Assembly: GCA_964637955.1 (NCBI GenBank)
Contig: CAZWXQ010000006.1
Coordinates: 26,926-90,925 of the forward strand
Direction: 5' to 3'
Length of the DNA stretch: 64,000 bases
Source of the DNA: an uncultured Gammaproteobacteria bacterium
Lineage (GTDB): Bacteria; Patescibacteriota; Microgenomatia; Levybacterales; UBA12049
Shown in pieces: positions 16,838 through 50,034 of the stretch; within the stretch, counting starts at the first letter, position 1; each line of letters starts with the position of its first letter. The notes under the pieces are model-generated. The model saw only the letters and a list, made by a program, of their open reading frames with translations, was not told the DNA's origin and did no database searches. The position numbers and the translations under genes are program-made.

Positions 16838-16930
16838 CGGATCCTCCTTTCGAGGAGTGGGTGGTCATAAGACCCCAACCGGAACGATCCCTCAGGACCG
16901 AAGAACGGTATTCAGGTCTAGACCGGTGGT

Positions 16931-27920: not shown

Positions 27921-28284
27921 TGTATTTACAATTATTGCTTTTTAAAAGTTTTTACTATATACTGCAATTGGTGCCCATGGAAACTTCATAAGTTCTCTGG
28001 GGAAAGAAAATGTTGTTCTCAGAGAATACCTCAGATACATACTATATCATCTCAAATCGAGAGTTTTTGTTTTGTTTTCAAAATAGAAACTTGTAGAAAA
28101 ATACTCGTTTTCCCAATTAATGGGATATTGCGAGGAAAGTGAGCCCAGTGCTTAGATCAAAGATCTAAGTATAAGTAACTCTAAAGCTCACTCTGTTCGC
28201 TAAAGAGTTACTAATACTAAAGTATAAGATTTTACTAATCTTTTTCTTCGAAAAAGAAAGCAAATCTAAAAAGGAGGTGAAAAA

Positions 28285-28355
28285 TTAATTTTCAATTTTA
28301 ATTTTCAATTTTCAATTAATTTTGAATTTTGAATTTTAAATTTTAAATTCGAAAA
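28285..28355. repeat. AT-rich repeat family copy 2 (AATTTTCAATTTTAATTTTCAATTTTCAATT...)
   Basis: Immediately upstream of 28357 ATG. Preceded by an AGTATAAG...hairpin...TCTAAAAAGGAGG module resembling the 5675-5745 unit. Confidence 0.5.
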
Positions 28356-31053: not shown

Positions 31054-34000
31054 TCAATTTATAAGAATCCAATTAAAAGGAACTGATTTCTCAATTGCTT
31101 TAGATAACCCAACGGAAAACGATTCTCCAGGGACTTGTCTCAGTAGATATACGCTCTGATTTGGGATGCTAGTTCTTGGAGTGATATATATTAGTGAATC
31201 CTTGGTGACTAAAGGATTTCTGATAGTTAGTTCATTTTTATAAGGCATTATGTCTGCAGTTCCTGCTGATCCTGTGGCTATTACCTCAGTTTCGCTTACG
31301 GCCAAGGCTTTATGTATAAAGCTAAGATTTAGCTTATTAAAAGTCCCTGATCCTGAAGCTTCTACGTCACCCTTATAATTAAATGTTAATACTGCTGAGC
31401 CCGTGCCAGTTTTAAATTCAATTTTGGACTCGTTTATATCATCAGATTTAAAGTCAAATATAAGATCACGACCGGGGATTGGAGCAATTATATTTGCCAA
31501 AAGTTCGCCATTAACCTGCGCATTTTTAGCAAAGTATGCGTTTCCTCCTACTTTTAGATTTCCTTCAGTATCAAATTCTACAAGGCCTCCTGCGATGGAG
31601 ACACCTCCTTGTCTTAAGGGTTGAAGTTCAAGGTTTCCTCCGAGAACATTTATGCTTCTTCCAGCAATTGAAAGCTGTGCGCCTACGAATAGTCTCTCGG
31701 CAATATTTGCTTCATAGAAGCTGGTTTGACCCCATGAAACGAGACTTTCCGTAAAGGTTCCTGAGCTTGCGCTAAATCCGGCAATATCATTTGAGCCATT
31801 AGCAGATGCCAAGTTTGTAGTAGAAGCGGATTCACTACTATTATAATAGTAGTTATTAGAAATATAAGTGTTACTTGCTGAAGAAGAGGATAGGTTAATT
31901 CCTTGAAGCTTGGCCAAGGCTTCTTCAGAAAGATCTAGTTGGTCAGCTATGATTTTGTCTGCTCTAAGGGTTCCTGAAATGCTCGCATCGTTTGTTTGTA
32001 ATGAGTTTGAGGCTAGATTGCCTGAGAAGCTGGCATTTCCTTCTGCGTCAATTGAAGCTATGGCTGAATTTGAGGCATTAAAGACTTCAACCTTTGAAGA
32101 CTTATCGCTTGTCGGCAATTTGATTACAAGTTTTTCTCCAGACTTAGGCTTGATAATATCTGACTCAATGATAGGTGAGGAAAGTGCGATTTGTTTTTGG
32201 CCAACTCTCTCGTCGACTATACTATATATATAGTCCCTAATATTTTTCCCTGCAATTGTAATATCTTCACTAGCGATTGCCAGTGTATCAACTGAAAGAT
32301 TTTCAATGTGGGCTACTATTATATATGCGCTACTTACCGTCAGTCTTCCGAGCTCTAGATATCCAGCTTTTATGTTGGCTGCGAAAAGATCTGAAAATGC
32401 CTCAACTTTAGTTATTGGTAGATCATCATAGGTTATTCCGAAGCCGTTTTCTTGATTTGGAGTAATATTGAGTGAATCTGCGCGAGTAATGAATTTTTCA
32501 CTACTATTATAAGTAGCTTTCACAAATATCATTACTCCATCCTGATTTTCATCCCAATCTTCAAGTGCTTGGCCTATGACTGGTCCAGGATCTGTTGCTC
32601 TCATTATTTTTCCGGGAGTACTTGATGACGTTACATAGTCACCTTGAAAAATTTTGCCATTTTCATTGCTTGCCTTAACGATGATTCTTCCGCTAAGCGC
32701 AACAGGAACTTGTTTTTGTTCTCTGTATTGATTTCCATTAAAGCCTCCGAGTAAAAGGCCAGGAGCTGTTGATATTGCTCCAATTGCGCGTGGGTCATAA
32801 GGAGTTGAGCTTCTTTTCACAAAAACACCTCTTTGAGGATCCATAGTTACGACTTCGCCTGCTGTTAAGCTGGTGTCATATGTTGGATAATTCTCAGCCA
32901 CATCATAAACACTGGTAGCCGTGGAGGATGAGTAGATTACCCCTTCAGAATTATTGTCATTGTTACAATCCGAATCACTTCCAACACAGAGTCCACCACC
33001 TGAGATTTGAACTTTTGACTCGGGGTTAACTGTTCCTATCCCAACATTACCACCATTTCCATTATTTGACATGACTATTAGATTGCCTGCAATTGTCGCT
33101 GTCGGGAGGTTAGTGCTAACATTTATGATCCCAAATTTGGCGGAAGAGGTGGAATTTCCCCCAACTAAGAAGTCATTTGTAGAATTACTCAAAAAAACCG
33201 ATCCGAGCGATTGGTTAAGGTTTGAGTTTTGTGATCCCGATGAGCAAGGTGCCCAAGTTGGTGAGGATCCATTTGAAATAAGACATAATCCGCTTGCTCC
33301 AATTGAAAGTCTGTTTAATCCATTTGAATTATTAGCATAGAGCATATCACCTGAATTGTAACTTGTGATTCCAGTTCCGCCAAAATTTACGCCAAGTGAA
33401 TTATTCACGCTCCATATGCCTTGATTAATTACTGGTACGCCAGTGGAGGAGGAAGTGTTTAGTCCAGTTCCTCCATAAGTGTTTGTGATAAGTCCAGCTT
33501 TCCATGATCCGGTATTTATGGTTCCATTTGTAATGCCAAGTCCATTAATGTTTCCAGAGGTTAAAATATTTCCACCGTTATCAACTAAGAATTTTGTTAT
33601 CGCTCCAGTCGATGCAATTATAAGATCCCCGGTCGAGTTTTGGTTAATACTTAAAATAGCTTGTCTCCCAGAGGTTCCATTTACGAGAAGCATATCTTCG
33701 ACTAAAACTGCTCCTTGTACCAGAGAATCGCTGTTTGATGTATTTTTAATTCCTTTTCGTATGTCAATCGAACCTGAGCCATCTGGTGAGAGAATTATGT
33801 CGCCATTGGTTTGCGACGTCGTAGAGAGAACTAGTGTTTTTCCTGAGATAGTAAAAGTTCCACCGGTTGCTTGAAAAGTCGGACTAGCATTTCCACCAAT
33901 AGTCAAATTTCCAGATGAGTTTAAGGAGAGTAGAACATTTGAAGTCTCTGAAGAGCTAGTAATTGGTTCAAGCCCTTGAACTGTTTCTGAGTTTTGAGAA

Positions 34001-35490
34001 TATGCAACAGTGGCGATTGGTTGTCTAGGAGTTAGTTCTTTTGTTTCATCGACTGTTATTCCCAAAAAGAGGGAAGGATTCTCGGAGAAAAGATTTTGAG
34101 GGATTGGTGTGTTTTTCCCCAAAACTACATTAAAAATTCCATCAGCATTTGGAGTAGCCGGAATTACTTCTTGCCAAAGAAGAGCAGAGCCAGATGCTAC
34201 TGCGTTTTTATAAAGCCCCATTCTTAGATTTGTTTCATAATTTATAGCTTGTCCACTGGCGTCTGTTATTCTTCCTTGGAAAGTAAGCACTCTTGAAGCA
34301 GTTGAAGGATTAGAGCCTAATACTGATAGACTTTTTTGATTTACTGAATTTACTCTTGATAAAAGTAGGTATGAAAATAAAATCACGGTCAGCATAAGAA
34401 GAGAAAGGTGAAAATAGGAAACAAATGTATATGAATGATATCTTTTGTACCAATTTGGTCTTGAATATCTACTAATGTGGATGATTTTTTTATGAACGGG
34501 CATTCCTTCGGTTGAAATGCTTGAAGGAGAATAGGTAGATTTAGATATGTTTTTGACTGAAAAATTATTTTGAGTATTAGCAAATGTATTAAATGTTGAT
34601 TTTGCGTTTTGTTCAAAGACTGGTTTTCCCTTAGCGATCCAAATAGCCTTATCAGCTTGAGATAAAGCGGCAGCAAAAGGGGTAACCAGTAGAGTTTCTG
34701 CCGCTAATTTTAGGCCTATATTTGATTTTTGGGCTATTCTAACCGGGGGAATACTAGAATATTTGATATCCTTTGATACATTTTCTTCAGTTAAATTTGG
34801 GGTAAAAGCGGGTATTATTAATTTATCGTCTAGCCTCGATTCGTTTAGCACTTGAATATTTGATCTGATAAGTTCGTGCTCAGTCGCCCAATTTGAGTAT
34901 CTTCGCAGAGATGAAAGCTTTCTATTAACAGAAGCAGGGGAGAGAAGTAGTGAATTTAGAAGATAATTTTTAAATTCATTTATTGAATTATTATTTACAT
35001 TATTTAAGGCTAAGCTAGCTTTGCTGTTAGCATTTGGAGCGTCTATTATGCTAGCCTCAAGCCAGTTTTTGTACTGTTTTAAGTCTATGATATAGTTTTT
35101 TATAGTAAGATTAGATGCCTTTTCTGTGTATAGATAATTTTTAAATTCTCTTATTCTCCACGTGTCTTGATCAATTTCACGATCAATTTCAATTTTAGCC
35201 TCAAATGGAGATTGTGAAACAATGCCTTGAGAATGAAGGAACGTAAAAAATTTACGAAGACTTGAGATGTTTCTTTCAACTGAGGACGCGGAATAGATTG
35301 AAAGTGAGGCTAATTTGAAGCTTTCTATTAATTCATAATTAATTTCGAGCGGATTAAAGCCCATATTAAATTGCTTTTCATACCATTTAGTAAACCTATT
35401 CACATCTGATACATAGTTTTTCACGGTAACTTTTGAAGCTGGGTGGCTTTGATTGAGTAAATAGTCTCGAAATTGTTCAGATAAGTTCAT
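31054..35490 (-). CDS. Giant (1478 aa) surface protein: N-terminal triple tyrosine-recombinase-type SAM-like (core-binding) modules, one TM helix, Gly/Ser/Thr-rich extracellular repeats, C-terminal domain shared with 1..5109
   Basis: aa 5-95 FRDYLL...VTVKNYVSDVNRFTKWY...SSVERNISSLRKFFTFLHSQGIV resembles XerC/D N-terminal domain. Two further partial copies (EFKNYLYTEKASNLTIKNYIIDLKQYKNWL; EFKNYLLNSLLLSPASVNRKLSSLRRYSNWA). TM YTFVSYFHLSLLMLTVILFSYLLL. No recombinase catalytic domain. Confidence 0.7.
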   Translation of the reverse strand: MNLSEQFRDYLLNQSHPASKVTVKNYVSDVNRFTKWYEKQFNMGFNPLEINYELIESFKLASLSIYSASSVERNISSLRKFFTFLHSQGIVSQSPFEAKIEIDREIDQDTWRIREFKNYLYTEKASNLTIKNYIIDLKQYKNWLEASIIDAPNANSKASLALNNVNNNSINEFKNYLLNSLLLSPASVNRKLSSLRRYSNWATEHELIRSNIQVLNESRLDDKLIIPAFTPNLTEENVSKDIKYSSIPPVRIAQKSNIGLKLAAETLLVTPFAAALSQADKAIWIAKGKPVFEQNAKSTFNTFANTQNNFSVKNISKSTYSPSSISTEGMPVHKKIIHISRYSRPNWYKRYHSYTFVSYFHLSLLMLTVILFSYLLLSRVNSVNQKSLSVLGSNPSTASRVLTFQGRITDASGQAINYETNLRMGLYKNAVASGSALLWQEVIPATPNADGIFNVVLGKNTPIPQNLFSENPSLFLGITVDETKELTPRQPIATVAYSQNSETVQGLEPITSSSETSNVLLSLNSSGNLTIGGNASPTFQATGGTFTISGKTLVLSTTSQTNGDIILSPDGSGSIDIRKGIKNTSNSDSLVQGAVLVEDMLLVNGTSGRQAILSINQNSTGDLIIASTGAITKFLVDNGGNILTSGNINGLGITNGTINTGSWKAGLITNTYGGTGLNTSSSTGVPVINQGIWSVNNSLGVNFGGTGITSYNSGDMLYANNSNGLNRLSIGASGLCLISNGSSPTWAPCSSGSQNSNLNQSLGSVFLSNSTNDFLVGGNSTSSAKFGIINVSTNLPTATIAGNLIVMSNNGNGGNVGIGTVNPESKVQISGGGLCVGSDSDCNNDNNSEGVIYSSSTATSVYDVAENYPTYDTSLTAGEVVTMDPQRGVFVKRSSTPYDPRAIGAISTAPGLLLGGFNGNQYREQKQVPVALSGRIIVKASNENGKIFQGDYVTSSSTPGKIMRATDPGPVIGQALEDWDENQDGVMIFVKATYNSSEKFITRADSLNITPNQENGFGITYDDLPITKVEAFSDLFAANIKAGYLELGRLTVSSAYIIVAHIENLSVDTLAIASEDITIAGKNIRDYIYSIVDERVGQKQIALSSPIIESDIIKPKSGEKLVIKLPTSDKSSKVEVFNASNSAIASIDAEGNASFSGNLASNSLQTNDASISGTLRADKIIADQLDLSEEALAKLQGINLSSSSASNTYISNNYYYNSSESASTTNLASANGSNDIAGFSASSGTFTESLVSWGQTSFYEANIAERLFVGAQLSIAGRSINVLGGNLELQPLRQGGVSIAGGLVEFDTEGNLKVGGNAYFAKNAQVNGELLANIIAPIPGRDLIFDFKSDDINESKIEFKTGTGSAVLTFNYKGDVEASGSGTFNKLNLSFIHKALAVSETEVIATGSAGTADIMPYKNELTIRNPLVTKDSLIYITPRTSIPNQSVYLLRQVPGESFSVGLSKAIEKSVPFNWILIN

Positions 35491-36028: not shown

Positions 36029-36973
36029 TTACTTTATTCTGTTTTTTAACTTTGCAGCTCTTATAAGCCAAGTAAGTATAGTTATCAGAGAAACTGTAAC
36101 TAGTAGACCTTTTACTGGCAATGCGAAAAATACTTTTGATTCGTGTAGTAGGGGGCCATTTTCAGAAATTGCCACATTAAGATCAGCCTTATATATTCCT
36201 AGAAGAAAGTTTTCATTCCAGGCTAACTTGCCGTTTGAGTTAGCTATAATTCTGCTCGAGTTTTCTAGTATCGTGGTTGGTTCAATTTCGACATTTCCTA
36301 CAGTTTGGCCAAACATGTTTTTTATGACTAAATTTCCTTTTGAAGTAACAAAATGCTTGCTGGTATTACTTATTTCTAATTCAGCTTCAACTGGACCATT
36401 TGAAACAAATCGGGGTATGGTAAATTTGGAAATAGCTCCGGTTGATTTATCATCTGATCCAACAGTAAGAAGAAGATTTACGCCTAAGCCTGCTTTATTC
36501 AAAACTATATTTGTCTTAGCTTCGCCAGAAGCTGTTTGAGATAAGAAAATAGCTGTGAAATAATAATCTCTTTGTTCAACTTCATCAGTAACCGGGATCA
36601 TTAGCAAGAGATTTTTCCTTTGAAAAGGTGGCACTGTGAGCTCGCTTAAGGGTTTTCCCTGGTCTGATATAGTTACTTTTTCAAAGAAAGATTTATATTC
36701 TTCTGAGAGTTCTGGATCAAAATTAGGTTCTCCGCTAAAATCAGAATTAGCCTTGAATGGGCGAAGAAAGATATTGTAAGTTATATTTTGATCCGATGAA
36801 TTATAAATATTTATCGGAGCTTTCACGACAGAAGGTGAGCTTGCGCGAATCTTAATTACGCTTGGGTTTACGCTTGTGGAAAAATTTTGAGCACTAGCGT
36901 TTTGTGCAAATGTAGTTAAAAGCATAAGCGCAATTAGAAGTATAATTTTCAATTTTAAATTTTTAATTTTCAT
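36029..36973 (-). CDS. Secreted protein with C-terminal TM anchor (hypothetical)
   Basis: N-term MKIKNLKLKIILLIALMLLTTFAQNASA is a signal peptide; first 10 codons encoded by AT-rich repeat. C-term VKGLLVTVSLITILTWLIRAAKLKNRIK. Confidence 0.55.
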   Translation of the reverse strand: MKIKNLKLKIILLIALMLLTTFAQNASAQNFSTSVNPSVIKIRASSPSVVKAPINIYNSSDQNITYNIFLRPFKANSDFSGEPNFDPELSEEYKSFFEKVTISDQGKPLSELTVPPFQRKNLLLMIPVTDEVEQRDYYFTAIFLSQTASGEAKTNIVLNKAGLGVNLLLTVGSDDKSTGAISKFTIPRFVSNGPVEAELEISNTSKHFVTSKGNLVIKNMFGQTVGNVEIEPTTILENSSRIIANSNGKLAWNENFLLGIYKADLNVAISENGPLLHESKVFFALPVKGLLVTVSLITILTWLIRAAKLKNRIK

Positions 36974-37045
36974 TCAATTATTAAATTTTAAAACATTTAG
37001 ATTTCATTAATAATTTTAAATTAGTAATTTTAAATTATTATTAGC
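36941..37045. repeat. AT-rich repeat family copy 3 (overlaps start codon of 36029..36973)
   Basis: ATAATTTTCAATTTTAAATTTTTAATTTTCATTCAATTATTAAATTTTAAAACATTTAGATTTCATT matches 18438-18550. Confidence 0.6.
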
Positions 37046-37049
37046 AAAG

Positions 37050-37793
37050 CTAATAACTAGGAATAGCTATGAAAGTAACTGTATTTGAATAGGGGCCTCG
37101 AGGCTGAGATGAGGAAACATTCACTTTGTAAGTAATCGAAGCTTCCTGGCCTAAGCTAGAGCTCTCAGAGAGCATGGTGGTTGGAGTCTCATCTTTTGAT
37201 GCATCTGAGAATTGTTTGAAATAATTTTCTCTATCAAAGCTAGTGTCATTTTCCACGCAGCTAGATTTACTAGAATCACATCTATATCCAAATCCATAAG
37301 TAAGAGTGCTGTCCCATTTGTCTGAAGTATAATCTGTGCATTTTCCATTATCACAAGTCGTGTCTGGGATTTTCACGCCTTTTTTAGCTTCGGTTAATTC
37401 ATGATTTTCAATTCCTGTAACTTTATAGCCAGCCTTATTCATGTTTTTAACTTTCAAAATATTGCTTCTGGTCACTGGATTGGTTGGGGAAAGTGAGCCG
37501 AAATCGATATTAGTGCTTGAAATAGAAAAACTGAATGGGTTATTTTCTGGAGAATAGTTTTTTCCCAAATCAACTTTATAGTTCACGCCTGAAAGCTCAT
37601 TACCCGTATTAGATGTGTCTATATCGATATTATTTGATGTAGTCGGGTCTGCAAAAGAATTGATGTTTTCAATCTGAACTTTATACATCGAATTCTGAGA
37701 TGACTGGGCACGAACCAAAGGCATAGAAATAAACAAATAAGCAAATAAACAAATAAGCAAATAAATTTTTAATTTTAAATTTTTAATTTTCAT
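37050..37793 (-). CDS. Secreted hypothetical protein (247 aa)
   Basis: N-term MKIKNLKLKIYLLICLFAYLFISMPLVRA signal peptide, again starting inside an AT-rich repeat copy (37755-37830). Cys-containing middle region. Confidence 0.5.
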   Translation of the reverse strand: MKIKNLKLKIYLLICLFAYLFISMPLVRAQSSQNSMYKVQIENINSFADPTTSNNIDIDTSNTGNELSGVNYKVDLGKNYSPENNPFSFSISSTNIDFGSLSPTNPVTRSNILKVKNMNKAGYKVTGIENHELTEAKKGVKIPDTTCDNGKCTDYTSDKWDSTLTYGFGYRCDSSKSSCVENDTSFDRENYFKQFSDASKDETPTTMLSESSSLGQEASITYKVNVSSSQPRGPYSNTVTFIAIPSY

Positions 37794-37906
37794 TGAAATA
37801 TTAATTCAAAATTTACAAATAATAATTTTCCGTTAATTAAATCGTAGCACAAAAGTAATATAACCTGCCATGAAGTCAGTTTCGCTGCAATTTAAAGACC
37901 TATAGT

Positions 37907-37935
37907 TTGACATTTACCTTAAAATATGGTAGGAT
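37907..37935 (+). promoter_or_regulatory. Sigma70-like promoter TTGACA-17-TAGGAT upstream of long structured leader of high-GC gene 38286..38729
   Basis: Consensus -35, 17-nt spacer, TAnnnT -10, all in AT-rich DNA just before the GC jump. Confidence 0.4.
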
Positions 37936-38028
37936 ATAGATCGCTTTTTGAGGCTAAATTAGCCATTTGCGGTTAAAATTAGCATCATTAAGTTTATTTA
38001 TTCTGAGAGGTTAATTTTTCTCAGATCT

Positions 38029-38130
38029 GGTCGCTTAAAGCGGCCTCGCACCTTAACAGATTGTCTAGTAGCTTCTATCTGAATTTATTCAGATTTAGAA
38101 CTACTTGATGCCGATACTTAATGTATCGGT
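38029..38130 (+). promoter_or_regulatory. Conserved ~100-nt hairpin-rich leader element, copy A (second copy 46288-46392)
   Basis: GGTCGC-TTAAAG-CGGCC hairpin, CTCGCAC, AGTAGCT..TCTGAATTTATTCAGATTTAG..CTACT, then CCGATAC-TTAATG-TATCGG hairpin. Aligns position by position with 46288-46392. Confidence 0.45.
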
Positions 38131-38285
38131 ATGGAATGAAAATTATAAATTATTGCTCATGTAAAGTGAGGACAATGGTTTAGTTATTAGTAAAAATAGC
38201 TGATCTTTTGTCCTTACTTTGCTTTGGCCGCAAGGTCACATAGAAGAGTTCGCTCGACTATGAGAGCAGAAAGCAGAGAAAGAAC

Positions 38286-38729
38286 ATGTCTGAGGAGCAG
38301 AAAGCATGCAAGCAGAAAACTCAGACAAGCTGGAGCACAGGCATGTCACTTCTTAGTGTTCGCCAGAACAGCGAGCTTGAGTTCGCTCGAGCCGTGAGGA
38401 AGATCCTGGAAAAGGCCATCAAGGAGAAGGTGACGATCACCCGCATCGTCAACGATCCCGAGTGGGTCATCCGGATCATCCGTGTCGATCAAGAGGGGGG
38501 GGTTTCCTCCGTCAGGTTCGAGGCGGTCTTCTACTCCGTGAGTCCTTTCGCCTACGACAACAGGTACTTCAAGTACCTCAGCCTAGTCATCACGGATGAC
38601 AATGGCTTCGGGGGCTCAGCGGAGTTCAAGTTCACTGACGATCAGATGTTCGTGACAGTTGGCTCATTGTGGCCGTCCACGCATCCGATCCAGCTGAACC
38701 TGACGTTCGACGACGACAATTTCCGCTAG
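38286..38729 (+). CDS. Hypothetical protein (147 aa), high-GC island 2
   Basis: GC3-rich codons (atc, ttc, aag, gag, gac), unlike neighbours. Contains an in-frame G8 homopolymer at 38495-38502. Confidence 0.6.
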   Translation: MSEEQKACKQKTQTSWSTGMSLLSVRQNSELEFARAVRKILEKAIKEKVTITRIVNDPEWVIRIIRVDQEGGVSSVRFEAVFYSVSPFAYDNRYFKYLSLVITDDNGFGGSAEFKFTDDQMFVTVGSLWPSTHPIQLNLTFDDDNFR

Positions 38730-39419
38730 GCCATAGGGGCGAAAAGGGGAGTCTGCTCTCTCTCCTCAGCTCCGGGTACGGAACTCTTAGTGAGGTATCG
38801 CGTGTGCAGAACGCTACCGATAATATCGTCAAGCTCGCGCGCTTCTTGAGGCGGTTATCCGTCTTGGCTTCGCAGTTCTGACGATCGGACGTGGTCTTCG
38901 TGCAGCCTACAAGCTGCTCGGCAAACTTTAGCTCGAAAGGAGCGGAAGGTGAAGAAGCCTCAGAATCCGAAGAGGATCCTGGTTCGCAGTTGGCCTAGGC
39001 CTCCTGGTCTCATTAGGCCATGGGTAGATCCCAGGATCGCTCCCAGCACCGGCAAGCAGAAGAAGTCTGTTGTCATCAAGTTCTGAAAGGAGCAGATTAG
39101 GGCAAGTAGCTCAATTCATTCCGCAATCATCCTAAGGGGAAATTCAGCCCTATGGATACAACTCGTGCTCTAAAAGGCATGGGTGAAACTGCACAGGTAC
39201 TGGGACGAAAGTCTTGGAAATAGAGACTAGATCTGGCGATCTTAAGGTTGTGCTGCATCGCTGCACCCCCTCGAGTTCTCCTCATTTTTTCTCCTTAACA
39301 CCTGTGTTTTTTCATGCCCATTTATAGTCATTAGTTAATAGGTATTAGATATTAGGCAATAGATTTAAAGCTAGTCACTAGTATCTAGTAACTAATAACT
39401 CAGGAGTGCTATACTTCAA

Positions 39420-39530
39420 GTATAATTTTCAATTTTAAATTCTCAATTTTCAATCAAGCTCAAAATTTTAAAATTAAAAATTAATACATTTATATTTCAA
39501 TGAAAATTAAAAACTCTAAATTAAAAATTA
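39420..39530. repeat. AT-rich repeat family copy 5 (inverted pair; supplies leuS start codon and first ~10 codons)
   Basis: AATTTTCAATTTTAAATTCTCAATTTTCAATCAA... then ATGAAAATTAAAAACTCTAAATTAAAAATT. Confidence 0.5.
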
Positions 39531-41950
39531 ATTCACGCTATTTTCCGCACAAAATTGAGGCTAAATGGCAAGAGAAATGGGCGAGTGATAAGATTTATGA
39601 GTTCAAATCTGATTCCTCAAAAGAAAAATATTATAACCTAGTAGAGCTTCCTTATCCTTCAGGAGATCTTCACTTAGGACATTGGTTTGCTTTTGTTCCG
39701 CCGGATGCTCACGCGCGATACATGCGTATGAATGGTAAAAATGTTCTATTTCCGAATGGGTTTGATGCATTTGGATTACCTGCTGAGAATGCTGCAATAA
39801 AACGTGATATCCATCCCAAAGATTGGACTATGAAAAACATCGAAACTATGAGGGGACAATTTGAAACCATGGGAACTATGATTGACTGGACTCACACCAC
39901 TAAAACGTGTCTTCCAGATTATTACCGCTGGAATCAGTGGATTTTCTTAAAGATGTTTGAAAAGGGCATTGCATACAGAGGAAAAGCGCTATCAAACTGG
40001 TGCCCAAAGGATCAAACTGTATTAGCTAACGAGCATATTGAGAGTGGAAAATGCTGGAGATGTGGAGAAGTTGTTGAGCAAAAAGAAGTAGAGCAGTGGT
40101 TCTTGAAGATCACAGATTTTGCCGATAAACTTCTTTGGGAGAATACTGATGAAAAGATCAGTAATGGAGTTGATTGGCCAAAAAGTGTCCGAGAAGCTCA
40201 GAATAATTGGATTGGAAGAAAAGATGGTATAAAGATTAAGCACGAGGTCGTAGGAACAGATCTTTCATTTGAAACTTTTTCAGCTTTTCCTGCATGGTTA
40301 TGGGCAGATTCATTCATAGTCATTGCTCCCGAACATCCACTGGTTAAAGAGCTTGTAAAAGGAACAGATAGCGAAAAAGAAGTTTTGGAATTTGTAGATG
40401 AAATGTCAAAGGAAACTGAGCTGGAAAGAAAAGAGACTACAGAAAAAAAAGGTGTTTTCACAGGAAGATATGCAAAGGATCCATTTGGCGGTAAAGATAT
40501 GCCTATTTGGCTTGCAAATTTTGCATTGCTAAATTTTGGGACAGGTATAATTAGATGCTCTAGCCATGATCCAAGAGATTTTGAGTTTGCCACAAAGTAT
40601 AAATTAGATCTTAAAGAGGTAGTAGATAGATATAATGATCAGCCCGCAAATGCTCACGACAATAAAGGTGTTCTTAAAGATTCAGGGCCATTTAGCGGTC
40701 GAAAAGTTAGCGAAGTAAGAGAAGAGGTGCTAGATTGGATTGAAAAAGAAGGAATTGGCGTTAGATTTGTAAATTATCATCTTCATGATTGGTCTATTTC
40801 AAGACAGCGCTATTGGGGAACACCTGTGCCAATTATTCATTGTGAAAAAGATGGAGATGTGCCAGTACCATTTGATCAGCTTCCGGTTGAGATTCCTTAC
40901 GAAGTAGATTATACACCACAGGGAAAGCCTCCTTTGGCATCAGCGGAAGATTGGTTAAATGTTGAGTGTCCTGTTTGTCACGGGCCGGCTAAGAGGGATG
41001 CCGAGACTTTAGACACTTTCTTTGATTCTGCTTGGTACTATTATCGTTACGTTTCGCCTCATTTTGAGGAAGGACCGTTTGATAGCGAGCTTGTCAAAGC
41101 GAGCATGCCTGTAAATGTGTATTTTGGCGGAGGAGAACACACTCTTGGTCACACGCTGTACGCGCGCTTTTTCACAAAGTTCTTTAAGGAGTTAGGATTA
41201 GTAGATTTTGATGAGTTTGCGCTGAAGCGAGTTCAACATGGAGTGATTCTAGGGCCTGACGGAAACCGCATGAGTAAATCAAAGGGAAATGTAGTAAATC
41301 CAGATGATGTAGTTCGTGAATACGGAGCAGACACCGTCCGTTTATATCTGTGCTTTATGATGCCTTATGAGGCTACAGCACCTTGGTCAGTAGGCGCAAT
41401 CTCAGGTATATTTAGATTCCTCAAAAGAGTTTGGGATTTGCAAAATAGTTTGGGGGAAAATATTGAATTAAATTCAGAAGATGAGTATTGGTTAAATAAA
41501 ACTGTTAAGAAGGTTGGAGAAGATCTTGAGGAGATACATTTTAATACCGCTGTTTCAACTCTCATGGAGTGGTTAAATTATTTATCCTCCAAGAAAGAGA
41601 TCTCAAATCTTGAGTATAAAACATTTTTGAAGCTACTTGCTCCTTTTGCGCCACATATTACAGAAGAAATATGGAGCCAGATAGATGATGAATTTCCAGT
41701 AAGCTCTATTCATCTTGAATCATGGCCCGAGTTTAATCAGGCTAAGATAGTTCAAGATGAAGTAAATATTGCAGTACAGATAAATGGCAAAGTTCGTGGA
41801 GCGATAAAAGTAGAAAGCTCAAAAATTGAATCTCAATCAGATATAGAGGAGATTGTAAAAAATGATCAAAATATATCAAAATATCTAGGAGGACAACAAA
41901 TTAAAAAAATAATTTATATAAAAGGAAAAATTATTAGCTTTGTTATTTAG
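39500..41950 (+). CDS. leuS: Leucyl-tRNA synthetase
   Basis: FPHKIEAKWQEKW N-terminus, HIGH-type motif (PYPSGDLHLGHWFAF), CP1 editing region, KMSKS (RMSKSKGN). N-terminal MKIKNSKLKI comes from the repeat element. Confidence 0.9.
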   Translation: MKIKNSKLKINSRYFPHKIEAKWQEKWASDKIYEFKSDSSKEKYYNLVELPYPSGDLHLGHWFAFVPPDAHARYMRMNGKNVLFPNGFDAFGLPAENAAIKRDIHPKDWTMKNIETMRGQFETMGTMIDWTHTTKTCLPDYYRWNQWIFLKMFEKGIAYRGKALSNWCPKDQTVLANEHIESGKCWRCGEVVEQKEVEQWFLKITDFADKLLWENTDEKISNGVDWPKSVREAQNNWIGRKDGIKIKHEVVGTDLSFETFSAFPAWLWADSFIVIAPEHPLVKELVKGTDSEKEVLEFVDEMSKETELERKETTEKKGVFTGRYAKDPFGGKDMPIWLANFALLNFGTGIIRCSSHDPRDFEFATKYKLDLKEVVDRYNDQPANAHDNKGVLKDSGPFSGRKVSEVREEVLDWIEKEGIGVRFVNYHLHDWSISRQRYWGTPVPIIHCEKDGDVPVPFDQLPVEIPYEVDYTPQGKPPLASAEDWLNVECPVCHGPAKRDAETLDTFFDSAWYYYRYVSPHFEEGPFDSELVKASMPVNVYFGGGEHTLGHTLYARFFTKFFKELGLVDFDEFALKRVQHGVILGPDGNRMSKSKGNVVNPDDVVREYGADTVRLYLCFMMPYEATAPWSVGAISGIFRFLKRVWDLQNSLGENIELNSEDEYWLNKTVKKVGEDLEEIHFNTAVSTLMEWLNYLSSKKEISNLEYKTFLKLLAPFAPHITEEIWSQIDDEFPVSSIHLESWPEFNQAKIVQDEVNIAVQINGKVRGAIKVESSKIESQSDIEEIVKNDQNISKYLGGQQIKKIIYIKGKIISFVI

Positions 41951-41980: not shown

Positions 41981-42583
41981 ATGGATCCTAAAGAGTATGT
42001 AGAGTTAGGGAAGCGCAATATTATTCCTATTAGCTTAGGCACATTAGGTATTCTTCTTTTAATCGGTGGTATTTTTCAAGCATATTCCTCGCGCTCAACT
42101 GAGCCTGATTTAGTTTTTGAAGAAAGTAAAGTCGAAGAGAAAAATACAGAGCTTGTGATTGATGTTTCGGGTGCAGTTATGAATCCTGGAGTCTATAAAT
42201 TAGCTTCTGGGAGTAGGATGGTAGATGCATTGGCTTCCGCTGGAGGACTTTCCTCAGAAGCAGACCGAGACTATGTAGAAAAGAATATAAATTTGGCTGG
42301 AAAAGTCTCAGATGGATTAAAGATCTATATTCCAAGGGTAGGGGAAGATATTTTGGTTGAGGCTCAAAGTTCTGGTGGTTCGATTGGTAGTACTGGGGGT
42401 CAAGTGATAAATATAAATCTGGCTTCAAGTACAGATCTTGAGGCTCTTCCTGGGGTTGGAGAAGTGACTGCGCAGAAAATCATTGATGGTAGACCATACG
42501 CAAGCATAGATGAGCTTCAATCAAAAGATATAGTGGGTGACGCTACTTACGAGAAGATAAAAGATCAAATAGCCGCAAATTAG
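41981..42583 (+). CDS. comEA: Competence protein ComEA (membrane-anchored helix-hairpin-helix DNA-binding protein)
   Basis: N-terminal TM. C-terminal INLASSTDLEALPGVGEVTAQKIIDGRPYASIDEL tandem HhH. Confidence 0.8.
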   Translation: MDPKEYVELGKRNIIPISLGTLGILLLIGGIFQAYSSRSTEPDLVFEESKVEEKNTELVIDVSGAVMNPGVYKLASGSRMVDALASAGGLSSEADRDYVEKNINLAGKVSDGLKIYIPRVGEDILVEAQSSGGSIGSTGGQVININLASSTDLEALPGVGEVTAQKIIDGRPYASIDELQSKDIVGDATYEKIKDQIAAN

Positions 42584-43937: not shown

Positions 43938-45179
43938 ATGTCTCCAAAATTTATCTATTTGATAGTAGCCTGTCTTTTTATTTTGCTATCTATAAGAATA
44001 GCTTTATTTTATTCTTCTGTCGAAAAATATCCTCCAGGCCAGATAATCAGTTGGCAAGCAAAAGTGCTAACACAGCCGAAGCTAAGCGTTCGTGGTCAGC
44101 AGTTTTCAGTATCTATGCCAAATTCGCAAAGAGTTTTGCTAAATTTGAAGCTAATTCCTCAGGTTTCGTATGGAGATAGTCTTTTGATAAGAGGTAAAGT
44201 GGATTATATAGAAGTCGGAGAAGGAGATTTGATCGCTTTTATGAATTATCCTGAGTTTAGGATAGTTGAGGTAGGCAGGGAAGGCAGTTTCATAATTAGA
44301 ATTCGAGAACACATTATCAGCTTTTTTAATTCATCTCTTCCTCAAACATATTCATCTCTAATGCTTGGAATAGTTTTTGGCATAAAAGAGGAGATGCCTG
44401 CTGATTTTTACTTGGATCTTCAAAAAACAGGACTTATGCACGTAATAGCTGCATCCGGAATGAATATAACCATGCTTGGGGGATTTTTGAGTTTGATTTT
44501 TGCCATGTTTTTTAGACGACAAGTAGCACTTATTCTTACAATTCTTGGAATCATTCTTTATGCCGTGCTTGCAGGCCTTGAGCCGTCCATAGTCAGAGCT
44601 TCGATTATGGGTATTTTGGTTTTTCTAGCCCAGCTTACAGGGCGTCAGAATAGCAGTTTCCTGGCACTATTCTTTGCTGCTTTCTTAATGCTTATGCGAA
44701 CGCCTAGTCTAATTCTTGATGTTGGATTTCAATTGTCGTTTTTAGCAACATTTGGTTTGGTTTATCTTAGGCCTATATTTGCATTTATTCCAGGCATTAA
44801 AAGGTTTTCAGAAAAGTCAGTAATTGTTGAAGATTTGACCACTACTTTAACAGCTCAGATTTCGACTTTGCCAATTCTTCTGGCCAATTTTGGAAGTTAT
44901 AGTCTCTGGTCAATTCCAGTAAACGCGATTGTACTTTGGACAGTTCCAATACTAATGATAATAGGTGGAGCAGCTGCGATAATTTCTTTTCTGATTGAGC
45001 CTATGGCAAGAGTGGTATTATACTTTTCTGTACCATTTTTGCTTTATTTTACAAAAATCGTTGAGGTTTTTGGAAGTTTTCCAGGTCAGATAAATATAAA
45101 AAGCATGTCATTAATGATAATCTCAGGCTATTATTTAATAATTCTGGCAATAATTGTCTATTTTAGAAATAAAAAGTAA
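43938..45179 (+). CDS. comEC: ComEC/Rec2 DNA-uptake channel, membrane competence domain (no fused lactamase domain)
   Basis: Polytopic. GLMHVIAASGMNITMLGGF competence-domain signature. Confidence 0.8.
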   Translation: MSPKFIYLIVACLFILLSIRIALFYSSVEKYPPGQIISWQAKVLTQPKLSVRGQQFSVSMPNSQRVLLNLKLIPQVSYGDSLLIRGKVDYIEVGEGDLIAFMNYPEFRIVEVGREGSFIIRIREHIISFFNSSLPQTYSSLMLGIVFGIKEEMPADFYLDLQKTGLMHVIAASGMNITMLGGFLSLIFAMFFRRQVALILTILGIILYAVLAGLEPSIVRASIMGILVFLAQLTGRQNSSFLALFFAAFLMLMRTPSLILDVGFQLSFLATFGLVYLRPIFAFIPGIKRFSEKSVIVEDLTTTLTAQISTLPILLANFGSYSLWSIPVNAIVLWTVPILMIIGGAAAIISFLIEPMARVVLYFSVPFLLYFTKIVEVFGSFPGQINIKSMSLMIISGYYLIILAIIVYFRNKK

Positions 45180-45215: not shown

Positions 45216-46082
45216 ATGAAGAAGGTATATTTTTTTATTTTCACAGCTTCTATTTCTCTATTAATTCTAATTATATTCGTATTATTTAGCTTCAATGATA
45301 AAAAGCTTCACATAATAATGTGTGATGTAGGGCAGGGTGATGGGATTTTGATTGATACCCCTGATAATGCCCAAATTCTAATAGATGGAGGTCCTGATAA
45401 GAGTGTTCTTGAATGCTTATCAAAGCATATGCCGTTTTGGGATAGAAGTATTGAGGCTATAATCCTTACTCATCCACACGCAGATCACTATTTTGGCCTG
45501 ATAGATGTAATAGAGCGATATAAATTGAATGGGTTTTATACCGAAGCCGTAAAAACGAATTCTGAGGGTTTTGATTTGCTTGAAGCTAAATTAGCAAGTA
45601 AAAAAATGAGTGCTAAAGATTTGAGCGTAAACGATAATTTTAGAAATAAGTCTGGAGTAAATATAAAAATATTATGGCCGAAGCTAGAAAATTCTAAAGA
45701 AATAGATCAGAATAGCGCAGATATAGACCTAAATGGATTAAGCGTAGTAGCCTTGCTAACGTACGGGAATTTTTCAATGCTTCTTACAGGTGATGCTGGA
45801 GAAAATGTCATGAATCAATTAGAAAATGTGGCTGGCGATATCGATATATTAAAAGTCCCACATCATGGCTCCAGGACAGGAATGGATGATGGATTCCTAA
45901 AGTTGGTAAAGCCGGAAATAGCTTTGATCTCGGTTGGACAGAAGAATAAATATGGTCATCCAGCAAAGGAAAGTTTGGATCTACTCAAAAAGAACAATAT
46001 TAAGATTTTTAGGACTGATAAGAACGGGACGATTGAGATTATATCTGATGGGAGAAGCTATAAAGTTAAATCTTCAAAATAG
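45216..46082 (+). CDS. ComEC C-terminal-type metallo-beta-lactamase-fold protein encoded as separate ORF
   Basis: HIIMCDVGQGDGILID, ILTHPHADH, KVPHHGSRTG. Same reading frame as comEC but separated by three stop codons in 36 nt. Confidence 0.75.
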   Translation: MKKVYFFIFTASISLLILIIFVLFSFNDKKLHIIMCDVGQGDGILIDTPDNAQILIDGGPDKSVLECLSKHMPFWDRSIEAIILTHPHADHYFGLIDVIERYKLNGFYTEAVKTNSEGFDLLEAKLASKKMSAKDLSVNDNFRNKSGVNIKILWPKLENSKEIDQNSADIDLNGLSVVALLTYGNFSMLLTGDAGENVMNQLENVAGDIDILKVPHHGSRTGMDDGFLKLVKPEIALISVGQKNKYGHPAKESLDLLKKNNIKIFRTDKNGTIEIISDGRSYKVKSSK

Positions 46083-46287: not shown

Positions 46288-46392
46288 CCACTTTAAAGAG
46301 TGGAGCATCGCACATTAAAATGTTATTAAGTAGTAGCTGTCTGATTTATTCAGATTTAGTTCTACTAATCCTACATATTTAAAATATGCAGG
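46288..46392 (+). promoter_or_regulatory. Conserved hairpin-rich leader element, copy B
   Basis: CCACT-TTAAAG-AGTGG hairpin, CATCGCAC, AGTAGCTGTCTGATTTATTCAGATTTAGTTCTACT, CCTACATATTTAAAATATGCAGG hairpin. Further hairpins (GGACCCCTCTAGGTCC, CTGAAGCTACGCGCTTCAG, GTCAGTCTTAAAGCTGAC) before the ORF. Confidence 0.45.
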
Positions 46393-46631
46393 ACAGAATT
46401 TTAACCTAGATGGGTACATCTTGATAATTAGCTTTTTGTTAATTATTAAAATGGACCCCTCTAGGTCCTCATCTATTTAACCTCATCCCATACTGAAGCT
46501 ACGCGCTTCAGAATAAAAGTCAGGGGCATCGTCCACTGACAAAAGTCCATTTGGCCGTAGTGAGTCAGTCTTAAAGCTGACTTGTTGGCATCATCCGAAG
46601 GGTCAATAGACCCTCAAGGGGAGTTACATCC

Positions 46632-47123
46632 ATGGGTTCTTCGGTCACTCCGATCCATTCTCGTGCGCTCAGCGCATGGGTCGTGTTCCGCGTCGAGGGC
46701 TCTGACAAGCCTTTGGTGGAGATCAAGGCGTACGGTTCCGACCACGCGACCCTGAAGGCTGACGCCATCCGCCAGATCAAGGCTTGCATCGAGAGCAAGC
46801 AGAAGTTCGAGCTTCTCGATGACGTGACGGTCTACCAAGACGTCATGGTCTGTGGGACGGTCCCGCCCGGCAACACGGAGTTCTGTCTCCTGGTTCGCTT
46901 CAGCGGCACCATCCACGACATCGTCGAGGCAGCCGGGCCCCAGCTCGAGAGGCTCTTCAAGCAGCTTCCGCAGCTCGCCGAGAAGGACGTCGATCCGCAT
47001 CACCTGACGCTGCTTCGCAGGGTCATCGACAACGCGACCACCGTCGACGAGGCGCAGGCCTGGTTGACTGAGCGCCGTCTCGGCAACAAGGCGCGAACGC
47101 GCAAGCTGGCGACCGGTCGCTGA
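46632..47123 (+). CDS. Hypothetical protein (163 aa), high-GC island 3
   Basis: SD AAGGGGAG 8 nt before ATG. GC3-rich balanced composition. The antisense 188-aa ORF is Arg/Leu/Asp-rich frame shadow. Confidence 0.6.
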   Translation: MGSSVTPIHSRALSAWVVFRVEGSDKPLVEIKAYGSDHATLKADAIRQIKACIESKQKFELLDDVTVYQDVMVCGTVPPGNTEFCLLVRFSGTIHDIVEAAGPQLERLFKQLPQLAEKDVDPHHLTLLRRVIDNATTVDEAQAWLTERRLGNKARTRKLATGR

Positions 47124-48082
47124 TCCCTTCTGGCATCTGGCTGGACTCAACATCTGGCAAGTTGCCGAGTCCCATCGCACCGAAAGTGCGAGCTAGTTCA
47201 CCCCGAAGGGAGTGAATTGGATGAAGACATCATTCCACCCGCCGAAGGATTTGCTGCGAGCCGCCAAGGCCAATTTCGTGGACTCTCGTGTTGTCCATCG
47301 AATCCGCGATCATTCGGTGAGAAAGTGCCCAAGGCACTGCAACATCGCCTGGTACACGGCGGCTCCACTCAGGCCTGGTGAAATCCCAGCCCAGGATCTG
47401 GCTCGCATGTCGCGAGACTACATGTCCAGATCTGGGTAGATCGGGGTTTGAGGTCGGCTGATCGTCCGGAAGCGCTTGAGCATGTGCTCGAGAACAGGGT
47501 TTCAGTCCCACAAGCGCCAAATCCGGTTTCGGAGAGGTAAAGTTGCCAAGGAGGTGACATAAATTCTGTAACAGAAAATGTGTGAGGTAGTGCTATGGAC
47601 TCGAAAGAGTAAAAGAGGAGGACAAGGATGTTCTCGCCAAGCCAGAACTTTAGCGTTCTGACCCAGCGAGACTTTCTCGTTTCTTTTTCCCCATAGCACT
47701 ACTATCGCACCCTTTATATAAAAAAATTATTTCTCTAATTTTCTTCTAAAATCATAAAATTAATAAAATATTTCCATACCATAATTCTCCGGATTAAAGA
47801 CTTCCTTTGGTCGCCCTACATTTAATTTGGGCCTTCCTTTGGTCGAACATGCAATAATTTCCAGGACTCCATTCAGTAGCAAAATGAGCAAAAATCCCTA
47901 ATTTTTTTCACAAAATCTTGGCAGGTGATATAGTTTGAATGCTAGCATTTAGGAAGCTAAAAGGTAGTAAATAATTCCAAAAAGGCGATGTGAAAAATTA
48001 AATATTTACAATATATGATTTATTATTTACCATTTTTGTTATTGTTAAATCGTAAATGATAAATGGTATATGATATTTATCT

Positions 48083-48817: not shown

Positions 48818-49034
48818 AAACGAATTATGATCTGAAGCAATTAAGAAGAATTGTGAAATATGTATGAGTTTTGTCGGAAAAGATGATTAAAAGAAAAATG
48901 CATACAGGAAAGGTGAAAATAGGGTTTGGGGAGGGGGCTAAATGAGCCGTCATTACTACCGCACTTGGGTAGACTAGACAGGTCAATGCTCCTCCCATTC
49001 CCTTACGCCTTCCTGACGCTCTTGACCCGCAGGT

Positions 49035-49910
49035 CTAGTGCGCCTTCACCGCGTTAACGGCTCGGATGAGTCGTGCGTTCTTGGGGCCACCATCCATGCG
49101 AGTTCGCATGAAGAGGTCATAGACCGCACGGTCGTAGATCGTCCTGTCTAGAACGAGCTTGAACTTCTTCGAAGACACCATCGAGCCGGGATCTCTGTGC
49201 GTGTAAGGCCAGGTGGACAGTTCATCGTTCGTGAACCAGTTTGTTGGATCGATGAACTCGATCGGCGGGCACGCGTGGGCGTAGCCGTACCGAACGATGC
49301 GGTCGCTGGTCAACTTGTCCTTGATCGTGTCCAGGCAGTAGGTGTCCGGGTATCCGGTCAGGTAGATGGCGATCTCCTTCAGCGTTGCCGTCGGAGACAA
49401 GAAGGGCGGTACGCCCAACATGAACCAGCCACCAGGCCGATTGAACCAGAGGACGAGACCCTCGTTGGCTGCGTAGAACAGCTCACCGCGGGAATACCTG
49501 CGTGAGATGCCGGGGGCTCCGAGTACCGCGTTGCGGTAGTTGAAGACCAGGTTCGGCATCTCGTCCGGTGCGTACCACGACGCGAAGCAGAAGTTGGCAT
49601 CGATGACGACGTTCTCGACCGTGACGGTCTTGAAGTCGCGCTTGATGCGCTTCTTCGGCTTGATCAGCGTGTCGCACAGCGCCGGATCGTCGTGGATGAC
49701 CAGGATCGGATGGCCACTCGTCAGTGTCACCTTCTGGACACCTCTTGCCACGTGGGCGCGGATTGTGTCGTTGGGTGTGCTGGCGCTAGCCACAGAACCG
49801 ACGATGAGGACCGCGGATGTCGCGATCAAGATCGAGGCTCCAAGCTTCCTGAGATTCACTGCGTTTCCTCCGAGTACTAGGCGATTCCTGAGACGGTTCG
49901 GCCTCGACAT
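49035..49910 (-). CDS. Secreted hypothetical protein (about 292 aa), high-GC island 4
   Basis: Start set at MSRPNRL... because the ORF-track ATG (50075) lies upstream of the predicted promoter. Signal peptide LGASILIATSAVLIVGSVASA. GC3-rich codons, several Cys. Confidence 0.6.
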   Translation of the reverse strand: MSRPNRLRNRLVLGGNAVNLRKLGASILIATSAVLIVGSVASASTPNDTIRAHVARGVQKVTLTSGHPILVIHDDPALCDTLIKPKKRIKRDFKTVTVENVVIDANFCFASWYAPDEMPNLVFNYRNAVLGAPGISRRYSRGELFYAANEGLVLWFNRPGGWFMLGVPPFLSPTATLKEIAIYLTGYPDTYCLDTIKDKLTSDRIVRYGYAHACPPIEFIDPTNWFTNDELSTWPYTHRDPGSMVSSKKFKLVLDRTIYDRAVYDLFMRTRMDGGPKNARLIRAVNAVKAH

Positions 49911-50034
49911 CAGTCGATGACGAACTCTTTCCTGTATGCGAATTGAAATGTGCTGTCGCGAGCATCTTTTTTCTCTGTCGATGTTTTCTCCAGATGAGCT
50001 TTGCAAAAAAGCGAGATTCTTTTGACGGCTGACA

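Follow-up and report, generated by a model that had tools for sequence, protein, structure and literature searches.

The 64-kb stretch of bacterial DNA analysed here (contig CAZWXQ010000006.1; the window) contains a GC-rich segment of about 1.5 kb, island 2 (~37899-39362), which we interpret, at a probability of roughly 0.6, as an accessory, self-contained expression cassette from a clade-specific GC-rich family residing in an AT-rich, Microgenomates-like genome. The best-supported reading is that of a cassette resembling phage morons and minimal mobile elements, which is horizontally swapped and has structured RNA at both ends. This interpretation draws on the base composition of the island, the coding status of its gene, the presence or absence of the island in relatives, the homology of its modules to those of other islands and base-pair covariation on the transcribed strand. 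No prior description of such a cassette family was found in the literature searched. The segment had been singled out by a model that saw the letters and their open reading frames (ORFs) only; this sequence-only reading described a high-GC island with a gene for a 147-aa protein and proposed that an in-frame run of eight guanines (G8) acts as a slipped-strand phase-variation switch.

The window has the base composition of a genome of ~35% GC, and because the best named relatives of its LeuRS belong to Roizman-, Levy- and Daviesbacteria, it is placed as Microgenomates-like, within the candidate phyla radiation (CPR). Four GC-rich islands with sharp edges (15800-18400, 38200-39260, 46600-47600 and 49000-50000) are embedded in this background and amount to 5.6 kb in total, or ~9% of the window. 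In island 2 the GC content is 0.50-0.56 over 38200-39200 versus 0.25-0.39 in the flanks, so that the description as a high-GC island was correct. At the third codon position (GC3) every island ORF reaches 0.73-0.84 compared with 0.25-0.32 in housekeeping genes, with values of 0.49-0.63 and 0.37-0.49 at the first and second positions (GC1 and GC2). An independently assembled Logan contig (L001, SRR14271332) is identical to the window over 37493-39353, G8 included, and crosses both junctions of island 2, and islands in AT-rich context recur in at least six samples; island 2 is therefore not an assembly artefact.

The ORF of island 2 (38286-38729, +) encodes 147 aa from its annotated start, with a GC content by codon position of 0.49/0.37/0.77. 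Since host genes have a GC3 of 0.25-0.32, this frame is truly coding, and the codon-position pattern marks it as such on either side of G8. The encoded protein matched only itself among 5.8 billion clustered proteins, and a HMMER search of 1.84 billion representatives yielded a single distant homologue, P0002 (118 aa, 35% identity, E 2e-6), which is encoded on L002, a 593-bp contig from Hainich groundwater. Pfam, NCBIfam, PHROGs and PADLOC gave no match for any of the 10 cargo proteins submitted. The cargo gene is thus real but an orphan, in line with the earlier label of an unknown protein. Its length has to be amended: L002 has CTG where ATG 38286 would be expected, and the two proteins align from Met20 onwards; translation therefore most likely begins at ATG 38343, which has GGAG 8 nt upstream and gives 128 aa.

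Whether a relative carries an island between orf247 and leuS varies. The closest relative, L168 (LeuRS 82% identical), has homologues of orf314 and orf247 followed by a 90-nt spacer to leuS, and L231 (LeuRS 69%) likewise has the site without an island. A different, unrelated AT-rich gene occupies the site in L015 (LeuRS 73%), and in L229 (LeuRS 70%) it holds two other GC islands of about 5 kb, one of which codes for a polysaccharide deacetylase. In relatives lacking islands, leuS lies behind a spacer of 90-105 nt with its own -10 box. Homology to L168 resumes at 39359, where window positions 39359-39418 align with 9925-9995 of L168 including the leuS -10 box GTGCTATACTT; on the left side, a global alignment with L168 was not interpretable. 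An 8-bp sequence, ATTTAAAG, is found on both sides of island 2, and the empty site of L168 reads cTTTCTAAAGACagg, matching it. With an estimated chance of ~0.04 for 40-nt windows, and being short, AT-rich and picked post hoc, this direct repeat is suggestive only as an insertion footprint. At the site of island 3, three different and unrelated first ORFs are present in the window, L168 and L231, and islands occur in tandem in L168 and L229. Relatives with a LeuRS identity of 63-66% showed no islands within 10 kb on either side, and the family therefore looks confined to a narrow clade. The LeuRS-based scans of metagenome and genome contigs mostly listed matches from distant phyla; L015, L008 and L010 were the informative ones among the matches listed.

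The islands share their 5' ends. All of them begin with CCTATAG(TT) adjoining a TTGAC(A) -35 box, which is followed by a -10 box, and the CCTATAGTT-TTGAC arrangement that opens island 2 also opens islands 3 and 4 and the islands of L168, L229 and L231. In a promoter scan the predicted sigma-70-type promoter of island 2 agreed with the consensus at 10 of 12 positions. A CTATAG palindrome also abuts the -35 TTGACA of a conserved non-island promoter (~10274-10290, -; L003 ~16554; L004 ~7900), and CTATAG may therefore belong upstream of promoters in this lineage generally instead of marking the end of an island. The leader behind the promoter folds with a minimum free energy of -137.6 kcal/mol versus -98 ± 5.6 kcal/mol for shuffled sequences (z = -7.0; 0/100 shuffles as good). 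Its first hairpin, H1, lies about 20 nt into the predicted transcript and has a loop that is kept across islands, while the upper stems covary (UUAGCC/GGUUAA, GGCC/GGCC, GCCC/GGGC, CGG/CCG, UGG/CCA, CUUGC/GCAAG). Three or more flanking pairs occur at only 7 of the 82 ATTTGC sites in the window, and three of these seven are island H1s. The H1 pairs were tabulated by hand; MAFFT gave no in-register alignment. A profile of promoter and H1 reached E-values of 1e-16 to 1e-18, but its matches were its own training sequences.

Further into the leader, a single-stranded motif (UCGCACCUUAA in island 2) is built on a core, GCAC(A/C/U)U, that none of the island leaders examined lacks, and conforms to the consensus UCGCACAUUAACA in most; the copy of island 3 lies at 46308-46318. 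It is followed by hairpins H4 and H5, which make up the element that the sequence-only reading had recognised as common to islands 2 and 3; the alignment (blastn) covers 63 nt at 76% identity (E 1e-7), and the element is also present in island b of L229. The likeness in architecture to island 3, claimed at the same time, extends to all four islands of the window and to those of related genomes. Close to the gene, the proximal 5' untranslated region (UTR; 38276-38348) is 85% identical to L002 over 75 nt although the proteins are only 35% identical, and this UTR including the hairpin at 38288-38326 is therefore under its own constraint. A viral scan with the 5' UTR pattern gave no match.

Downstream of the cargo gene, the GC-rich tail had been described as ~530 nt of non-coding DNA ending at 39260. 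Such a tail is present, and both hairpins reported in it, GCTCGAAAGGAGC (38931-38943) and GGCCTAGGCC (38992-39001), were found. It is not plainly non-coding, as it includes a plausible 45-aa ORF and a conserved structured module, and the latter runs past 39260 to about 39338. The first ~360 nt are unique to island 2, except for a post-stop element and a hairpin carrying a Shine-Dalgarno (SD) sequence, both of which are common with L002, where a matching SD hairpin precedes a second ORF. The 45-aa ORF behind the SD hairpin encodes a basic product, has a GC3 of 0.65 and may be coding. No similarity was seen between it and the conserved 72-aa ORF in the tail of island 3 (47221-47439, +), which likewise follows an analogous hairpin; the 72-aa protein is basic, has a C..HC motif and is 49% identical in L231 (8114-8329). 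The first ORFs of island 3 (163 aa) and of the L231 island (105 aa) are unrelated. A possible 25-aa ORF at 38804-38881 (+) has a GTG start, GAGG 8 nt upstream and a GC3 of ~0.73 by hand count, and it sits in a tail portion that L002 lacks; this ORF may be either a remnant or the gene of a small peptide. Residual codon-like periodicity was detected at 38766-38880.

The second part of the tail is a 3' module that recurs behind unrelated genes. It is homologous to L168 17735-17981 and to L229 6740-6989 and 9670-9911 (blastn E 2e-7 to 2e-23), and these three ends belong to islands with unrelated cargo (island A of L168 and both islands of L229). The consensus structure comprises 35 pairs with 93.5% of cells paired, a fraction that drops to 36-52% when the pairing is slid, and compensatory changes occur in 9 pairs versus 3.6 in shuffles (0/500 reach 9). 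Because of invariant U-G pairs, the structure is assigned to the plus, that is the sense, strand. On the minus strand, an ORF at 39127-39285 with a perfect SD sequence was rejected, as its frame, judged by hand, is not kept in L168. An nhmmer profile of the four 3' modules retrieved just those four (E about 1e-58), and the nhmmer profiles of the 3' module, of promoter plus H1 and of H3-H5 all retrieved training sequences only. Because none of these profiles brings the island-2 type together with the tails of islands 1, 3 and 4, several types of 3' module exist. The terminal hairpin of L229 is capped by an AUUUGC loop as in H1, and the same loop closes an 11-bp hairpin in the tail of island 1 in L003. 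At the very end, the C/G ratio is 1.6-5.2 at all eight island ends examined, and windows of comparable C and pyrimidine content are rare (15/12,786 in 64 kb). The positions of all features are given in Table 1.

Table 1. Features of island 2 and of its surroundings (positions in the window).
Feature	Position	Strand	Description
rho	23014-24393		Rho encoded in window
1478-aa protein	31054-35490	-	two N-terminal phage-integrase SAM-like domains
AT-rich (AATTTTN)n-like repeat	18429-18545, 28277-28350, 36927-37042, 37754-37820, 39414-39535
Candidate 8-bp direct repeat ATTTAAAG	37890-37897 and 39363-39370	+	flanks island 2
Island left end / predicted promoter	37899-37935	+	CCTATAG abutting -35 TTGACA (37907-12), 17-nt spacer, TG-extended -10 TAGGAT (37930-35)
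5' leader	37936-38342	+	~400 nt, AT-rich, chain of hairpins
H1	37950-37986	+	bipartite hairpin, loop AUUUGC (37965-37970), first transcript structure
Leader motif UCGCACCUUAA	38046-38056	+	single-stranded; family consensus (U)CGCACAUUAA(C)A
H4 (38066-38105) and H5 (38110-38130)	38066-38130	+	conserved element common to islands 2 and 3
Proximal 5' UTR	38276-38342	+	hairpin GUCUGAG...CUCAGAC (38288-38326), ribosome-binding site GGAG (38331-34)
Cargo gene	38343-38729	+	orphan 128-aa protein, no signal peptide; annotated start 38286
G8 run GGGGGGGG	38495-38502	+	in frame, GAG GGG GGG GTT = E-G-G-V
SD hairpin and 45-aa ORF	hairpin 38931-43; ORF 38949-39086	+	hairpin GCUC-GAAA-GGAGC; GTG start, AAGGAG 6 nt upstream
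3' module	39091-39338	+	loop-AAAUUMAG hairpin, variable GAAA/CAAAA hairpins, long terminal hairpin (~39236-39300)
Terminal tract	39255-39325	+	C/U-rich, G-poor (C24, G8, 75% pyrimidine), U runs
comEA, comEC, metallo-beta-lactamase part of ComEC	41981-42583, 43938-45179, 45216-46082		sited between islands 2 and 3

Island 1 is syntenic and remains 60-67% GC in genomes in which the island proteins are only 57-69% identical. In the comparison with L003, its ORFs are 75% identical at the nucleotide level and mosaic, with hypervariable C-termini and a ratio of nonsynonymous to synonymous divergence (dN/dS) of 0.5-0.6; its non-coding tail (15650-15976, -) is 92% identical, and the flanking genes are 82-85% identical with a dN/dS of 0.09. 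This tail forms 107 consensus pairs with GNRA-type loops. Synonymous divergence (dS) in island 1 is 0.46-0.53 versus 0.78 for the flanking gene(s). Island 4 (49035-49859, -) has a dS of 0.48 and a dN/dS of 0.29 relative to L168 20252-21076 (-), and leuS, argS and a 244-aa gene have a dS of 1.9-3.0 between the same two genomes; either island 4 is far 'younger' than the genes beside it, or its synonymous sites are under constraint. The low dS of the islands fits exchange between lineages, synonymous-site constraint, or both.

From these observations a course of expression can be proposed. Transcription would start at about 37942, driven by the CCTATAG-linked, sigma-70-type promoter, and run through the ~400-nt folded leader with its AUUUGC-loop hairpin, the GCACAUUAA motif and further hairpins, then through the GC3-rich gene of the 128-aa orphan and possibly the 45-aa ORF with its SD sequence in a small hairpin, and would reach the ~250-nt folded 3' module with its long hairpin and C-rich, G-poor tract, where it would end at about 39300-39330. 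On the RNA itself, the two end modules would work in cis. Protection of the transcript, or its licensing against Rho, would fall to the 5' hairpin and leader; stabilising the transcript and bringing it to an end, perhaps by way of Rho, would be the task of the 3' hairpin and pyrimidine tract. Conserved modules on either side would moreover give homologous recombination the flanks it needs to exchange cargo once DNA has been taken up; comEA and comEC are encoded nearby.

Several points weigh against this interpretation. The terminator scan returned no canonical intrinsic terminator at island 2, and the promoter, the transcript ends and the RNA-level roles are predictions from consensus matches and folding. 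Covariation was counted over 4 sequences in the case of the 3' module and over 9-12 in that of H1, and the recombinational swapping of cargo is deduced from patterns of presence and divergence. As to what the cargo does, the AlphaFold2 model, built from a two-sequence alignment, had a pLDDT of 42 and was unusable. The GC-richness itself is unexplained: an AT-rich leader directly beside GC-rich cargo is hard to reconcile with a mutational or gene-conversion bias of purely local reach, and the lack of relatives of the cargo speaks against a GC-rich donor that could be recognised.

Four other explanations were weighed against the cassette. That slipped-strand mispairing at G8 turns the 128/147-aa protein on and off, making it a phase-variable contingency gene, is improbable. 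The tract lies in frame within ORF 38286-38729 just as first reported, it is the only G/C run of at least 7 in the window, and it stands out all the more as A/T runs of at least 8 are rarer than calculated (3 vs ~12 expected). A G8 is intrinsically prone to slippage, DNA repair is reduced in many CPR bacteria, and a change of one base would indeed truncate the product, to a predicted 84 aa (G7) or 104 aa (G9) from ATG 38286 and to 65 or 85 aa from Met 38343. Against this, base frequencies predict ~0.6 G/C runs of at least 8 per window by chance, mainly in the 5.6 kb of GC-rich islands, and GAG-GGG-GGG-GTT arises easily because GGG supplies 3 of the 7 glycine codons of the cargo. The Gly-Gly under the tract is part of a conserved GGVSS motif, which L002, the only homologue, spells GGT GGT and thus without a tract. 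No second tract occurs in the 64 kb, though contingency loci usually come as sets, and the cargo lacks a signal peptide, whereas typical phase-variable genes have surface or restriction-modification functions. The tract is G8 in the independent assembly too, for an organism seen on one or two contigs only, and the G7 and G9 products were absent from a collection of 15 billion proteins, a weak negative given the rarity of the organism in public data. The proposed switch thus finds no support; on the cassette reading, G8 simply results from a GC3-rich gene having two GGG codons for glycine in a row, and in practice its annotation as a phase-variation switch would call for evidence from reads.

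That the conserved ends, namely the CCTATAG left end and the AUUUGC-loop hairpins, are recognised as DNA by a recombinase encoded elsewhere, which would make island 2 a non-autonomous mobile element, either a transposon with cargo or a site-specific cassette, is rather unlikely but still a live alternative. Sites filled or empty among relatives, a candidate direct repeat matching the empty site, conserved modules around unrelated cargo, tandem islands in L168 and L229 and AUUUGC-loop hairpins close to both ends in L229 and L003 would all suit such an element, as would the conserved protein with integrase SAM-like domains encoded three genes off. Yet no island-specific terminal inverted repeats were seen, no transposase or integrase catalytic domain was found in or beside the islands, the hairpin stems differ between the ends and have the loop alone in common, the direct repeat has the weaknesses given above with a left junction that is not precisely alignable, and G-U pairs and strand-specific covariation favour an RNA over a DNA structure. 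A recent transfer from a GC-rich donor, with the tail as decaying remnants (pseudogenes) of donor genes, is very improbable. The GC1/GC2/GC3 values of island ORFs resemble those of a ~60% GC genome, the tail retains codon-like periodicity, and one cargo of L229 is an ordinary polysaccharide deacetylase; this deacetylase, however, is at most 31% identical to anything in the plasmid collection and offers no clue to a donor, and in protein searches the cargo families occur in islands of this clade only, without recognisable relatives in GC-rich organisms. Island 1, moreover, has kept its GC content in the diverged orthologues, and tails are more conserved than ORFs, the opposite of what is expected of pseudogenes. 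Scarcely credible, finally, is the view that the 3' module is a cis-regulatory leader of leuS, akin to a riboswitch or T-box. In the window and in L229, leuS follows the module directly and has its orientation, but the module also ends island A of L168 and island a of L229, where the promoter of another island follows; relatives without islands have leuS behind its short spacer with a -10 box, and neither T-box nor any other Rfam family matched.

If the cassette reading holds, ~9% of the window consists of swappable cassettes whose RNA ends outlast the genes in conservation, and this would give a concrete way into the question of how CPR bacteria, ultra-small and dependent on hosts, acquire accessory functions and vary them. 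It would also add two new structured RNA motifs that can be surveyed across metagenomes. A puzzle is that a GC3 of ~0.8 persists in orthologues only 57-69% identical as proteins, in a genome of 35% GC and beside an AT-rich leader, which neither simple mutation bias nor recent transfer explains. Going beyond the cassette as such, it is conceivable, though doubtful, that an undescribed cassette system of a narrow Microgenomates clade is at hand, in which AUUUGC hairpins, the BoxA-like GCACAUUAA and the C-rich 3' tract are addressed to a dedicated machinery that acts in trans, be it a recombinase or a factor for RNA binding or antitermination. A reduced, AT-rich genome could thereby express, insulate and shuffle GC-rich orphans, and their GC-richness would be actively maintained instead of stemming from a donor.

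Some further observations concern the other islands and the surroundings of island 2. Secreted or membrane proteins whose C-termini are hypervariable make up several of the cargos. The two island-1 proteins (15977-16837, -, and 16931-18334, -) are secreted or membrane-anchored and share a repeated domain of ~85 aa that ends in W-x-P-x-x-C-x-P-L; relative to L003, the C-terminal copies of this domain are hypervariable, with 48-60% nucleotide identity beside blocks of 95-98%, a pattern that suggests diversifying selection or segmental replacement. The last hairpin of the island-1 tail (CCUUUCUCUU...AAGAGAAAGG) is located just upstream of the ribosome-binding site of the downstream glycosyltransferase and may overlap it. 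The hotspot of island 3 starts immediately past the stop codon of the beta-lactamase-fold gene. The 1478-aa protein, three genes from the island-2 hotspot, is kept at the same position in L168 (1488 aa) and L229, and the domain scan found no catalytic-domain match in it. In orf314, orf247 and LeuRS, the start codon ATG and the N-terminal 'MKIKNLKLKI' come from the (AATTTTN)n-like repeat; L168 and L231 lack this repeat, and the LeuRS of L168 begins MAQEKNTKK. Two of its copies form a 46-nt inverted repeat around island 2 (37760-37805 / 39488-39533), and members of the same AT-rich repeat family are also present elsewhere without islands.

No Rfam, Pfam, phage, plasmid or defence-system match was obtained for any part of island 2. 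In Rfam, only two tRNAs exceeded the gathering score in the window and the best E within 37800-39400 was 3.8. A viral scan with the 15-mer GCATCGCTGCACCCC gave 60 matches that are probably due to chance and had no extended similarity. Leaders with a BoxA element, acted on by Nus factors, are found in rRNA operons, at suhB and at CRISPR arrays, and the BoxA consensus of gamma-proteobacteria is GYTCTTTAANA (PMC5725501). As in those leaders, the islands have a short single-stranded motif beside hairpins in a long untranslated leader, and the genome encodes Rho. Unlike BoxA, the island motif (GCACCTTAACA, GCACATTAACA) agrees at 9 of 11 positions with both mismatches at T positions of the U-rich core, measured, as the window holds no rRNA operon, against a consensus that may not be the host's own, so that the likeness is only a lead.

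A precedent for lasting GC-rich genes in an AT-rich genome is given by the lgr genes of Protochlamydia amoebophila, GC-rich leucine-rich-repeat genes of 5 kb in an AT-rich, host-dependent bacterium; title and abstract of that report mention neither common leaders nor 3' RNA modules of lgr (PMC2216083). Diversity-generating retroelements, integrons, IS200/IS605 elements and T-boxes were set aside after comparison with their defining features, and so was a group II intron, as Rfam showed no riboswitch, T-box, group I or II intron, ribozyme or large non-coding RNA. No transposase family of the IS200/IS605 or another transposon type matched, and the stems of the end hairpins differ. A diversity-generating retroelement would call for a repeat that ties an island ORF to a second site; no such direct repeat occurs, and no reverse transcriptase was present among the ORFs scanned, which were part of those in the window.

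Poly-G contingency loci are known in Neisseria, Haemophilus, Campylobacter and Helicobacter. With these simple-sequence loci island 2 has in common a homopolymer inside a reading frame, where slippage would truncate the product; it differs from them in that the tract is single and at chance level, that its length is the same wherever it was seen, that the Gly-Gly is tract-free in the homologue and that the product is no obvious surface protein. Integron cassettes consist of an ORF plus a structured attC recombination site, and they share with the islands small cargo ORFs of largely unknown function followed by a conserved, imperfect long hairpin, as well as arrays, here of two. In contrast to integron cassettes, each island has its own predicted promoter, no IntI is present, the loci are scattered and the structure behaves as sense-strand RNA. 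Inspection of the terminal hairpin by eye, with no pattern search run, revealed no attC core sites (RYYYAAC / GTTRRRY), and the scans gave no match to an integrase catalytic domain.

Phage morons are autonomous promoter-gene-terminator units of atypical base composition between conserved genes. Island 2 shares with them a predicted promoter of its own, which is kept among islands, the atypical composition, the place between conserved genes and its presence or absence among close relatives, and a terminal hairpin with U runs and a C-rich tract stands at its end. It departs from morons in that no canonical terminator was seen in the scan, that long structured RNA modules common to units with different cargo lie at both ends, and that it resides in a bacterial chromosome among housekeeping genes (leuS, comEA/EC, argS) rather than in a prophage; PHROGs and blastn against phage and plasmid collections gave no match. 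The minimal mobile elements of naturally competent Neisseria are different genes between the same flanks, exchanged by transformation and homologous recombination. The islands differ from these in having shared internal 5' and 3' modules, a uniformly GC-rich composition in an AT-rich genome and orphan cargo. As in the minimal mobile elements, mobility genes are lacking, comEA and comEC are present, and gene content is variable at the same intergenic site, both between orf247 and leuS and behind the beta-lactamase-fold gene; the presence of ComEA and ComEC and an island dS below that of the flanks are consistent with an exchange of islands by transformation.

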